From Alphaproteobacteria bacterium (GTDB taxonomy: Bacteria; Pseudomonadota; Alphaproteobacteria; UBA7879; UBA5542): a stretch of 64,000 bases of DNA. Shown here piece after piece: positions 1 to 5,197 of this stretch. The DNA lies in the NCBI GenBank assembly GCA_046317875.1, contig JBKCVN010000025.1:15879-79878 (forward strand), read 5' to 3'. A program made the translations under genes and the position numbers. A model generated the notes under the pieces. The model ran no database searches. It saw nothing but the letters and a program-made list of their open reading frames with translations, and was not told where the DNA came from. Each line of letters opens with the position of its first letter. The stretch's first letter is position 1.

Positions 1-944
1 GCTTTAAAGGGTTAGAGAATGATGGTCTGCGTAAGAAGCTTTGTGTCTGTGTTTTAGAGCCTGATTTTTATTTGAAGGCTCAGGCGTTGGGAACATTAAA
101 ACGAGCACGCCTTGTGAGTTTATGTCAGGGGTATGCTCCAGAAATAGCTGCTCAAGGAAAGTTCATCCAACGTTCCAGGTCTGCTTCACCCGATAGGGAA
201 AAAATTAATTTGAAAAAGCGCACTGTTGTGCGGCTTGACCCTCCTTCTAGGGGTCGCTCTCCCTCTCCTGTTCCCTTAACGCGTGGTAGGTCCCCTTCTC
301 CTGAGCCTGTTGTGCAGGTGGATCGTACACCTTGGGTTCGATCAGATACTCCTCCTGCGCCGGGGGCAACTTCCGTAAGAACATCTCGGTCTCCTAGTCC
401 GCAAAGAATGACTCATGCCGGGGGAGGGGCAAACTCGTCGCATGTATCTGATATGACTGCAGACCCAGTGCCTGAAGAGATTAAAGTAACCAGTACGATG
501 TCTTCTCTTGCAAAAGGTTTAAGCGAAATCAAAGAAGAGATGCAGAGGAAACTCTTGGCTAAAGAGAAACGAAAAGATCTTGAATCCCAAATAAAGAAGG
601 TTCAGAAAGACATAGATGAAGCAAAAGAGAATTATGATAACTTGCTTGTTATTATCAGTGTTCTTAAAAAAGATCTACCTGATGCCGAATTTGGTTTCAA
701 TAGACAGCCATTTAAGAGCCAGGGGCATTTTCAAAAATTCCAGAAAGAACACTCTGGTTTAGAAGGGGAGGAATATTTCGTGAAACTTTTTGATTATTTG
801 AAACCCTATGCTCGTAACTTATCTCCACACGATTGGGCTCAAATACAGGCAGCTGAAAATCTTTTAAAACAAGCACGCTTGCATTTATCCCAAGGCCAAA
901 CTCAGCTGGCTCGGCTTAATACAGAAATGTTAAGGCTAAACTGA
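1..944 (+). CDS. Hypothetical protein, 5' end outside window; Arg/Ser/Pro-rich RSPSP repeats followed by a coiled-coil-like region; candidate host-directed effector
   Basis: The frame of the 72..944 ORF stays open back to nt 3 (FKGLENDGLRKKLCVCVLEPDFYL...), so the gene is cut by the window edge. It contains RSRSASP, SRGRSPSPVP, TRGRSPSPEP and TSRSPSPQR. A Lys/Glu-rich heptad-like stretch follows (EIKEEMQRKLLAKEKRKDLESQIKKVQKDIDEAKENYDNLL). No family recognised. A hairpin follows the stop. Confidence 0.55.
   Translation, partial: FKGLENDGLRKKLCVCVLEPDFYLKAQALGTLKRARLVSLCQGYAPEIAAQGKFIQRSRSASPDREKINLKKRTVVRLDPPSRGRSPSPVPLTRGRSPSPEPVVQVDRTPWVRSDTPPAPGATSVRTSRSPSPQRMTHAGGGANSSHVSDMTADPVPEEIKVTSTMSSLAKGLSEIKEEMQRKLLAKEKRKDLESQIKKVQKDIDEAKENYDNLLVIISVLKKDLPDAEFGFNRQPFKSQGHFQKFQKEHSGLEGEEYFVKLFDYLKPYARNLSPHDWAQIQAAENLLKQARLHLSQGQTQLARLNTEMLRLN
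249..308 (+). repeat. Imperfect tandem duplication encoding RGRSPSPVPLT / RGRSPSPEP
   Basis: agg ggt cgc tct ccc tct cct gtt ccc ... cgt ggt agg tcc cct tct cct gag cct: two adjacent copies of the same peptide unit with synonymous and near-synonymous differences. Confidence 0.6.
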
Positions 945-971
945 TAAAGTAGGCCATAAGTTGGTAATAAA

Positions 972-992
972 AAGCAGGCATTATGCCTGCTT
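972..992. terminator. Hairpin between convergent genes (9-bp stem aagcaggca / tgcctgctt, 3-nt loop), T-rich 3' flank
   Basis: Direct reading: aagcaggca-tta-tgcctgctt followed by cttt. It lies 28 nt after the stop at 944. Confidence 0.5.
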
Positions 993-1022
993 CTTTATAA
1001 TATCTTTGTGGGCACAAAGGCT

Positions 1023-1763
1023 TTAATTTTTTATTACCCTCATAAACTTATATAAATTATTACTGAATAAAGTATGCGGATCCCATTTTTCTTTGATGCG
1101 TAACCATTCATGAAGATTAGGGTAAATCTTCAAAAGTTGGTCTTTCGAAAAATGAAGGCGGTAGGGCAAATAGAATGTACCCTTCAGGCCAAGGGTTTGA
1201 TTAATAAGATCTTGGGTAAATCGTTTCATTTTTTCTTCTTCTGTTATTCCTAAGGGTTAGGACAACAGCAAAACAAAAGCAAACATATCTTGGGGTGCAT
1301 AAGGCAAAAGGGAAATAGAATCTTTTTTGACTTGGCGCATGGTGATGTTCAATAAATTAACTTTATTCTTTTAAATGGATTTTTTTAGAATCCTGATAAA
1401 TTTGGATGTATGGGGCGGTGGTATAAAGTACTCTTGCAAAATATCCGTTCTTTCTTGGTCTAGGGGCCACAGGGTGTGGATATCTGTGGTCATGGCCATA
1501 TTTCGTGAAATAGCGGGGCGTGAGGTTGAATAAAGGGAATAAAGTTTTTCTGCCATCCACCGAATAGTTTTGCCCAAAGGAATATATTGGGATAGTCGAA
1601 AGATGCCTCGCTTCCATGCTACCAAAGATTCTTTCAAAGTATTGTGCGGTTGAACTTGAGAATTACATTTTTCATACCAAAACAAGCCTGCTTCCTCTAT
1701 GGCTGACAGGGTGTTTCCTGGAAACAATAGTTTTATGTGCAATATATCTGGGGAAGTGAGCAT
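1023..1763 (-). pseudogene. Remnants of an FAD-linked oxidoreductase-like gene (two ORF fragments, 1371..1763 and 1023..1229, separated by stops)
   Basis: The C-terminal fragment ...YLPYRLHFSKDQLLKIYPNLHEWLRIKEKWDPHTLFSNNLY resembles the conserved C-terminal tail of FAD-linked (ALO/GULO-type) oxidases (YP..w..lR.k.DP...F.N.y). The upstream fragment carries ...ILQEYFIP.... No N-terminal FAD-binding domain is present and the frames are interrupted. Family assignment is by memory of motifs only. Confidence 0.3.
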
Positions 1764-1982
1764 GATAGGCGGGGGTGTAGAATGGCTCGATCATCAAATA
1801 TGCGACCATTAAAAAAAATCATGAAAATCAAAAATATGGCAGGGAATTGTTATTTGTGTGTTCGATTCCAACCTTGGGCCAAAGAAATAAAGTTGTTATA
1901 AGCCTAAGAACCATTCTTGTACGATGCAACCAGAAACAAAAATAAAACAGTAGAGATTTTAAAAAAAGTTTAAAGAAACCCC

Positions 1983-2011
1983 TTGACGTGGGGGTGAAGA
2001 TTCTCTATACA
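1983..2011 (+). promoter_or_regulatory. Candidate sigma70-type promoter of the 23S-5S operon
   Basis: TTGACG (1983-1988), a 17-nt spacer, then TATACA (2006-2011), about 175 nt upstream of the 23S 5' region. A small GC hairpin cccac-ttcg-gtggg follows. Confidence 0.4.
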
Positions 2012-2159
2012 CATGGTTACCCCCACTTCGGTGGGACTGTTGATTGAAATCGTAAACAAAAGAGTAAACACTAAGTTTTTCCAAGTTTTTCTGAAAAGAA
2101 AAATAACGAAACACACGAAACGTATCTCTACATGATTAATTCACATGTAGAAGCGTGAG

Positions 2160-2186
2160 AATACATATCACTGTATATGAAGTCTC

Positions 2187-2194
<8 letters not shown>
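2160..2194 (+). other. 5' arm of the long processing stem bracketing the 23S rRNA
   Basis: aatacatatcactgtatatgaagtctcaataaagc pairs with 4937..4970 (gctttattgatcttcatgtacagtgatctgtatt). That gives ~33 bp with one mismatch, one G-U pair and one bulge, a typical RNase III-type stem. Confidence 0.6.
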
Positions 2195-4936
<2,742 letters not shown>

Positions 4937-4946
<10 letters not shown>

Positions 4947-5082: not shown

Positions 5083-5197
5083 CCTGGTGGTTATAGCGAG
5101 GAATCTACACCCGATCCCATCCCGAACTCGACCGTGAAAGTCCTCTGCGCCAATGATACTACACCTCGACGTGTGGGAAAGTAGGTCGCCGCCAGGT
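5083..5197 (+). rRNA. rrf: 5S ribosomal RNA
   Basis: cctggtggttatagcg...cccgatcccatcccgaactcgaccgtgaaag...gggaaagtaggtcgccgccaggt. It is 115 nt long, the terminal helix cctggtgg/gccaggt is intact, and it lies ~135 nt after the 23S. Confidence 0.9.

Follow-up and report, generated by a model that had tools for sequence, protein, structure and literature searches.

A modular Sec-signal protein of a small-genome alphaproteobacterium combines an IQ-type helix with a recurrent R-x-R-S-P-S-P motif

The window studied here (G000:C25:15879-79878) is a 64,000-nucleotide stretch of one contig of an alphaproteobacterial genome, G000 (1.13 Mb, 35 contigs, 43% GC, 100% complete by marker genes). A sequence-only reading had noticed that its first 944 nucleotides encode the C-terminal part of a protein with an Arg/Ser/Pro-rich segment and had proposed that this protein is translocated into a host and mimics host linear motifs. 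We recovered the full open reading frame (ORF) upstream of the window and found that it encodes a protein of 620 aa, P0001, that begins with a signal-peptide-like leader. The signal peptide, an N-terminal domain (N-domain), a Pro/Ala/Lys linker, a helix with an IQ motif and a charged helix are encoded off the window (Table 1). Judged from its sequence, P0001, the product of a small-genome alphaproteobacterial endosymbiont, is a good candidate for an interaction with the machinery of host cells. The additions made here are an R-x-R-S-P-S-P motif that recurs and two orphan module families that are fused in one protein.

Table 1. Features of the P0001 gene and protein. Window positions count from the first nucleotide of the window. 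AF2, AlphaFold2; pLDDT, predicted local distance difference test.
Feature	P0001 residues (aa)	DNA position	Strand	Remarks
Full P0001 gene	1-620	G000:C25:14960-16822 = L001:582-2444	+	ORF read upstream of the window
3′ 313 codons and stop codon of P0001		window 1..944	+	frame 3, open to the left window edge
Signal peptide	1-24			predicted, Sec-type; MQHRTFFAILFSMLFIWGTEGISA before the cut, then SK
N-domain	26-108			AF2: β-hairpin and helices, pLDDT ~90 (aa 31-100)
Pro/Ala/Lys linker	109-147			disordered
IQ helix	154-169	C25:15419-15466		AF2 helix spans aa 152-173
Charged helix	175-245			
B domain	289-349	window part 3..128	+	small, helical, two near-invariant Cys (C321, C348); AF2 pLDDT 86-95
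Arg/Ser/Pro-rich linker	356-469	window 147..488	+	disordered; AF2 pLDDT 40-48
Unit RSRSASP (R-x-R-S-A-S-P)		window 171..191	+	also in ortholog P0002 and distant homolog P0007
Unit SRGRSPSPVP		window 246..275	+	
Unit TRGRSPSPEP		window 279..308	+	RGRSPSP peptide same as in the preceding unit
Unit TSRSPSPQR		window 381..407	+	ortholog P0002: SRSSSP at the same place
C domain	473-619	window 498..938	+	coiled-coil hairpin and helical bundle; AF2 pLDDT 82-91, all helices
Intrinsic-terminator-like hairpin		window 972..1002	+	9-bp stem (5 GC pairs), T-rich tail; 28 nt past the P0001 stop codon

The gene is intact and probably expressed. A GAGGGGG Shine-Dalgarno sequence lies 6 nt 5′ of the ATG codon, and the hairpin proper of the terminator-like element occupies L001 2472-2492, which is window 972-992. 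The leader consists of a basic n-region (MQHR), an h-region (TFFAILFSMLFIWG) and the residues TEGISA, with the predicted cut at an I-S-A site before SK. Its Kyte-Doolittle 11-mer maximum is 2.79, and its sequence features are those of Sec-dependent export. Nearly all homologs of full length, in either module family, had comparable leaders; the leader of a paralog on contig C23 of the same genome ends in KAYSA, with the predicted cut also before SK.

Downstream of the Arg/Ser/Pro-rich segment, where the sequence-only reading had noted a Lys/Glu-rich coiled-coil-like region and an unassignable C-terminal domain, the AF2 model shows a Lys/Glu-rich helical region and a further helical C-terminal part. 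The B domain pattern LC...FY..A..G.G..K...C.G was kept in 15 to 16 aligned homologs, and the C domain has the family motifs YDNL and L..A...L......L.RLN.EML. Searches of Pfam, NCBIfam and, with phmmer, the Protein Data Bank (PDB) with full-length P0001 returned only coiled-coil noise and the IQ motif, and they found no kinase-like or other enzyme domain. The profile of the B-C family gave nothing significant against the PDB (best match, E = 0.064), and Foldseek found no PDB match for either AF2 model at E ≤ 0.001. A wide structure search (VIA), in which the N-domain and the B domain were barely sampled, returned only generic three-helix and helical-hairpin matches; Z scores were at most 10.3 (C domain) and 7.6 (IQ and charged helices), both below the level that is meaningful for helical bundles. 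The ESM Atlas gave no usable feature matches, and its structure rows had TM scores of at most 0.5 to unrelated families. The absence of homology to a conserved bacterial protein, on which the sequence-only reading depended, was borne out: P0001 matched no housekeeping or envelope family and is lineage restricted.

An exhaustive HMMER search of 1.8 billion representative sequences found only 23 related proteins, which are modular. In one set (alignment A2), a signal peptide and an ~85-aa domain (..Y.DGS...W....ERL..L...G.) are joined by way of a Pro-rich linker to an IQ motif. This set comprises P0003, P0004, P0010, P0014, P0017, the C23 paralog (307 aa, with a signal peptide and the IQ motif AATTIQAGFRGMKARQ, 24-28 bits; G000:C23:14696-15619, L003:1486-2409) and a 341-aa protein of genome G006 with two IQ motifs. 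The other set (members P0006-P0023; typically 260-300 aa, with a signal peptide) has the layout LC..I....FY..A...G.G.IK...M...C.G, a short linker and a coiled coil with YDNL...REDL and L..A..NL..AR.DLE.INREML. P0001 matched the N-domain plus IQ profile at 5e-83 and the B-C profile at 1.1e-76 over positions 17-270 of 271, with phmmer E-values of 1.6e-9 to 9.5e-4 for single B-C members. These matches identify P0001 as a predicted modular exported protein in which two small orphan module families are fused. P0003 (526 aa) has the same fused architecture. The family members that we looked up are annotated as "hypothetical protein" at most.

Within the reach of these sequence searches, small-genome alphaproteobacteria and metagenomes are the only known sources of either module family. 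In GTDB, 1 of 17 other species genomes belonging to the order carried the B-C family, as did 3 of 400 that were sampled from the class, all carriers being 0.9 to 1.6 Mb in size; one B-C member comes from the Acanthamoeba symbiont Ca. Caedibacter acanthamoebae (CP008936.1). Eight other genomes of the family gave three matches to the N-domain plus IQ module, one solid and two weak.

The one ortholog, P0002 (671 aa, 59-69% identity), was found in two Logan read-set assemblies (SRR10823795 and SRR10823798) in the same gene neighborhood, and the conservation statistics given here rest on these two sequences, P0001 and P0002. The flanking DNA of the two genes is 90-95% identical, and the ratio of nonsynonymous to synonymous substitution rates (dN/dS) over the whole gene is 0.46. 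Identity is distributed as a mosaic. A tract of ~700 bp (L002:1100-1800 against L004), which takes in the 5′ end of a divergent GT10 glycosyltransferase gene, the intergenic region with the promoter and codons 1-112, is 97-100% identical (dS 0.017). Codons 151-245 and 467-620 have ~55% nucleotide identity, and the middle codons, 246-466, are 85-90% identical with a dN/dS of 0.14-0.39. The Arg/Ser/Pro segment is 88% identical at the amino acid level (dN/dS 0.39), more conserved than its hypervariable neighbors. From these comparisons, the ~700-bp tract, next to which lie two hypervariable gene segments, looks like the product of recent gene conversion or exchange, and the mosaic points to recombination, perhaps with diversifying selection. 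Both hypervariable segments may mark an interface in an arms race.

The congener G001 has, at the syntenic site, the upstream fucosyltransferase-family gene and then, after ~340 bp, the 23S rRNA gene; P0001 is absent there, and its gene is therefore accessory. The spacing between the same two genes is ~3.2 kb in G000. Because the G001 23S gene starts only ~340 bp from the fucosyltransferase-family gene, the whole ~3.2-kb stretch with P0001 is an indel between the congeners. Even if its motifs do not function as we propose below, the locus is a clear case of a fast-evolving, mosaic accessory gene next to an rRNA operon.

The four Arg/Ser/Pro units lie exactly where the sequence-only reading had placed them, in frame 3. 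Alignment A3 places the expansion of the linker as an insertion solely in P0001 and P0002, which identifies the Arg/Ser/Pro stretch, at the level of sequence, as a B-C linker expanded in this lineage. Together with RNRNPSP just ahead of domain B, the linker units give P0001 five copies of R-x-R-[SN]-[PA]-S-P, and the core R-x-x-S-P is common to all five. An RSPSP just ahead of domain B is kept in P0003 and P0007, the latter of which also has RSRSASP after domain B, and P0002 has an extra KSRSPSP copy within a duplication of ~55 aa. Arg, Ser and Pro make up 13%, 15% and 16% of the linker versus 5%, 7% and 5% of the proteome. The arrangement of the motifs is not explained by this composition, since none of 20,000 composition-preserving shuffles reached the observed count. 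S-P-x-x abounds in this strongly basic linker, which also has acidic and Thr/Val-rich stretches.

The units had also been likened to the RS domains of eukaryotic SR proteins, with which the linker shares an Arg/Ser-rich, disordered character and, in places, Ser followed by Pro. This resemblance did not hold up. The repeat is R-x-R-S-P-S-P and not (RS)n, there are only 9 RS/SR dipeptides in 108 residues with RSRS as the longest run, and P0001 has no Pfam match to an RNA recognition motif (RRM) or another RNA-binding domain. We therefore rejected an SR-protein RS domain. The segment is GC-rich, as reported before, with 54% GC at window 171-407 versus 43% in the genome. Its GC content at third codon positions is 0.37, like that of the rest of the gene (0.33-0.39) and below that of the genome (0.43), and we rejected a foreign origin of this DNA. 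The excess is confined to codon positions 1 and 2 and is thus a by-product of Arg, Ser, Pro, Gly and Ala codons.

Two of the units had been taken for a tandem DNA duplication at window 249-308, but the repeat is one of the peptide only. The DNA of the two RGRSPSP[VE]P units is identical at 18 of 27 positions and, among third positions, at 3 of 9; of the seven residues that they share (RGRSPSP), four use different synonymous codons; and Tandem Repeats Finder reported no repeat at 249-308. Because the units differ at synonymous sites, they do not represent a recent duplication; the RGRSPSP peptide appears to have been kept while the underlying DNA drifted. The single unit of P0002 is a chimera, its 5′ part like unit 1 and its 3′ part like unit 2, which fits two old RGRSPSP units that would have been collapsed by unequal recombination in the P0002 lineage.

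The IQ motif is the sole Pfam match of P0001. Residues 159-169 (LQSAWRGHRVR) match the core consensus [FILV]Q...[RK]G...[RK] of PF00612; the hydrophobic residue that is usual two positions past the last Arg is absent (D-K-K instead). Against a cut-off of 20.3 bits, hmmscan gave the motif 20.2 bits and a six-frame genome search gave it 24.6. The corresponding motif of the C23 paralog, IQAGFRGMKAR, scored 24.2 and 27.6 bits, respectively. P0004 has three IQ motifs (IQAAWRGHHVR thrice, 66.9 bits), P0017 scored 20.4 bits, and P0003, P0010 and P0014 fell just under the Pfam cut-off. The motif stands at one alignment position in 8 of 8 N-domain family members, with A-A..Q...R....R invariant, and in the AF2 model it lies on an exposed helix beside the disordered linker (pLDDT ~68-72).

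Searched against the PDB, the profile of the family's IQ segment matched solely eukaryotic IQ or calmodulin-binding segments: RSP23 (E = 1.8e-5), myosin-Ic (3e-5), Sp17 (7.5e-5), more weakly neuromodulin (0.12), and further DRC9/10, IQSEC1, myosin V and PCP4. None of 14 control genomes had a site that reached the IQ cut-off, against three in G000, where one more site fell just short of it. No EF-hand pair protein was found over threshold in G000, which would leave the host as the source of any calmodulin-type partner. The IQ helix is a stronger eukaryote-type feature of P0001 than the RS/SP segment that had first drawn attention; judged from the sequence, its binding of calmodulin is putative. 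Elsewhere in G000, the IQ-type sequence AAVKIQKAFRKWHAAK ends an orphan open frame of ~850 aa (20.6 bits; G000:C31:8200-8250; L021, ORF end 1665), and AAVILQKAFKKYQAQKK ends a 353-aa Peptidase_S8 subtilase (19.3 bits, below the cut-off; G000:C4:7176-7235; L022:541-1602). A C-terminal IQ helix on an enzyme, here an S8 subtilase, recalls SidJ of Legionella.

The basic SPSP motif was found in only four ORFs genome-wide (among ORFs of ≥100 aa), all four of which have hydrophobic leaders versus a base rate of 18% (crude p ~0.001). P0001 has 8 occurrences of R..SP, an unrelated exported protein (441 aa, contig C9) has 6, and all other ORFs have at most 2. The congener ortholog of the C9 protein (45% identity) keeps RTRSPSP, RPRTPSP, RERSPSP and RPRTPSP. 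Because the R-x-R-S-P-S-P heptad recurs in unrelated exported proteins and because its peptide is constant over codon divergence, we propose that it is a functional linear motif, with recurrence and peptide constancy as our main argument. An Arg at position −3 together with a Pro at +1 is the preference of CMGC kinases of the DYRK/CLK/SRPK type, and both serines of the heptad sit in this context. No Hanks-type kinase was found above the Pfam cut-off in G000.

The C9 protein (G000:C9:37653-38978; L017:1001-2326) is an orphan with the motifs GRRSPSPV, GRRRSPSPV and RRTPSP, and its C-terminal ~200 aa are conserved across genomes of the family. Its stretch EDDDLQAALEISRITAEEE resembles a ubiquitin-interacting motif by eye and gave no Pfam match. 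Directly 3′ of the C23 paralog, L003:2564-3013 encodes a 149-aa signal-peptide protein with RRAPSPSPASSPSSS, KSPSP motifs and a coiled coil.

How P0001 might reach a host was considered from the machinery encoded in G000. VirB4 of a type IV secretion system (T4SS) was not found over threshold in this genome, which makes T4SS translocation of P0001 unlikely. The genome encodes a 597-aa secretin (Secretin plus Secretin_N_2; G000:C23:86485-88278; L015:1411-3204, minus strand) and a type VI secretion system sheath protein (VipB/TssC, 416 bits; C13:103333-104235). A plausible route is a type II or type IV-pilus-like machine with the secretin, or a release of periplasmic contents like that of Holospora; either would bring P0001 into contact with the host.

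The reading that we prefer, tentatively, is of P0001 as an adaptor that is exported and directed at the host, with calmodulin as its docking partner and proline-directed kinases of the host acting on it, its export to the host being presumed. After Sec export, P0001 would leave the bacterial cell and meet the host cytoplasm or nucleoplasm. There the IQ helix would dock host calmodulin or a related EF-hand light chain, and the clustered R-x-x-S-P sites would be phosphorylated or bound by proline-directed, arginine-preferring CMGC kinases of the host (DYRK/CLK/SRPK/MAPK type), so that P0001 would act as an adaptor or decoy and not as an enzyme. The host-motif effector proposed earlier is in this respect partly upheld: the export signal, the IQ helix, the lineage restriction and the recurring heptad speak for it, while the T4SS route does not.

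Several observations weigh against a host-directed adaptor. P0001 itself has a borderline IQ score, and the IQ motif of its ortholog (LQSKWREYLIR), which lies within a hypervariable stretch, has lost the Gly and has no Pfam match. Most B-C members have a plain Lys/Glu/Ala/Pro linker between the two domains without SP motifs, so that the core function of the B-C family does not need them. With a single ortholog, the conservation statistics are thin. The near-invariant Cys pair of the B domain would suit a disulfide in the periplasm or outside the cell better than the reducing host cytosol; it fits periplasmic folding and, as to an action in a reducing compartment of the host, is neutral or speaks mildly against it. 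A secretin with Secretin_N_2 fits a type II secretion system or a pilus alike, and the kinase assignment rests on general consensus motifs. The step beyond the periplasm into the host, and phosphorylation, are steps that we infer.

Some of the same observations would suit a periplasmic or envelope protein of the bacterium's own, for example a periplasmic component of an infectious form or a surface-layer component, in which the Pro-rich and Arg/Ser/Pro stretches served only as flexible spacers and the IQ-like helix, basic and amphipathic, had its partner in the bacterium. The Sec signal peptide without any sign of a dedicated effector translocation signal, the conserved Cys pair, a TonB-like Pro/Lys linker at aa 109-147, the scarcity of eukaryote-type motifs in the B-C family and a helical bundle with only generic structural matches would all agree with such a role. 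We nevertheless consider it somewhat unlikely, given an IQ profile that matches solely eukaryotic calmodulin-binding segments in a genome without an EF-hand pair protein, and a heptad that is nonrandom, held as a peptide despite codon divergence and common to unrelated exported proteins. Nor would one expect hypervariable segments in structural envelope parts, where they are unusual, or a gene that is dispensable, as its absence from the congener site indicates.

The strongly basic, S-P-x-x-rich linker could alternatively be an SPXX- or protamine-like arm that contacts DNA or RNA in the host nucleus and is not a kinase substrate. A precedent is PRP1 of Holospora obtusa: this periplasmic protein has a signal peptide, enters the macronucleus by secretion and is a weak DNA binder (PMC9866348). 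Such an exported nucleic-acid-binding protein seems very unlikely: Pfam and NCBIfam revealed no DNA-binding domain, the invariant feature is R-x-x-S-P and not S-P-K/R-K/R, the linker includes acidic and Thr/Val-rich stretches, and the IQ helix would be left without an explanation. That the ORF is decaying or nonfunctional, with repeats that are slippage debris in a degrading region next to the rRNA operon, is scarcely credible. The gene does lie within the ~3.2-kb segment missing from the congener and adjoins remnants of an oxidoreductase gene, yet it has an open frame of 620 codons with a ribosome-binding site and a terminator, a syntenic intact ortholog from which it differs at a dN/dS of 0.46 overall and 0.14-0.39 in the conserved middle, confidently modeled domains, and repeat units that diverge at synonymous sites and so did not arise by slippage.

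If P0001 is a host-directed adaptor, then by analogy it would work most like effectors that mimic short linear motifs, as a member of neither the SidJ nor the NopL family. Legionella pneumophila SidJ binds calmodulin via an IQ helix (PMC6858067), and SidJ/SdjA and Chromobacterium CopC are effectors that use host calmodulin via an IQ or calmodulin-binding helix (PMC6858067, PMC9239266). P0001 likewise has a eukaryote-type IQ motif on an exposed helix in an organism without a calmodulin of its own, and the intragenic recombination by which SidJ evolves (PMC8378335) parallels the mosaic of P0001. SidJ, however, is a glutamylase with a kinase fold that is delivered by the Dot/Icm T4SS, whereas P0001 has a Sec signal peptide and no recognizable catalytic domain, and we found no homology between the two outside the motif. 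Lacking a kinase-like domain, and in a genome without a VirB4 match, P0001 was rejected as a SidJ-type calmodulin-activated effector.

Rhizobial NopL is a type III effector in which a cluster of SP motifs is phosphorylated by a host mitogen-activated protein kinase (MAPK), as cited in PMC7291247. The likeness is one of motif: a disordered region with multiple Ser-Pro sites, exported by a bacterium inside eukaryotic cells and proposed to be a substrate or decoy of proline-directed host kinases. NopL is delivered by a secretion system of type III (T3SS) and is directed at plants, whereas P0001 has neither a T3SS nor a T4SS context, and its motif is basic and would suit arginine-preferring CMGC kinases over plain MAPK sites. 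In Holospora obtusa, the 63-kDa PRP1, a signal-peptide protein of the periplasm, reaches the nucleus of the host by secretion, and an 89-kDa invasion-tip protein of the infectious form is also periplasmic (PMC9866348). The Holospora proteins, like P0001, are lineage-specific, largely helical orphans whose N-terminus carries an export signal; their storage in the periplasm is followed by release to the host. We found no sequence similarity between them and P0001, our searches having returned only the two module families, and PRP1 has a reported DNA-binding domain, whereas none was detected in P0001.

Obligate protist symbionts are difficult to work with, and most of the proteins by which they manipulate hosts are orphans. 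P0001 offers three handles on them: an IQ helix that is conserved, the R-x-R-S-P-S-P heptad that recurs among the exported proteins of the genus, and two small domain families whose members shuffle between proteins. If our reading is right, Sec-exported proteins of bacteria without a T3SS or T4SS could carry eukaryote-type motifs that engage calmodulin and proline-directed kinases, and the heptad would help to locate further host-directed proteins in related genomes. A bolder extension, which we regard as distinctly unlikely, is that R-x-R-[ST]-P-S-P is an undescribed motif that the genus evolved repeatedly and that, with IQ helices on at least four proteins (the subtilase and the ~850-aa orphan included), forms a toolkit for proteins exported by Sec and not by a T3SS or T4SS. 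Proteins routed to the periplasm would then engage host calmodulin and CMGC-kinase signaling, and perhaps phosphorylation-dependent nuclear import.

Beyond P0001, the 23S rRNA gene occupies window 2187-4946 and the 5S gene window 5083-5197. No 16S gene lies within the ~3.7 kb read upstream of the 23S gene (L001 plus window 1-2186), which suggests that the rRNA operon of G000 is split. Between P0001 and the 23S gene, on the minus strand at window 1023-1763, stand fragments of 68 and 130 aa from a decayed gene for a FAD-linked oxidase (ALO-type, PF04030), of which the contig with the ortholog has a 199-aa version.

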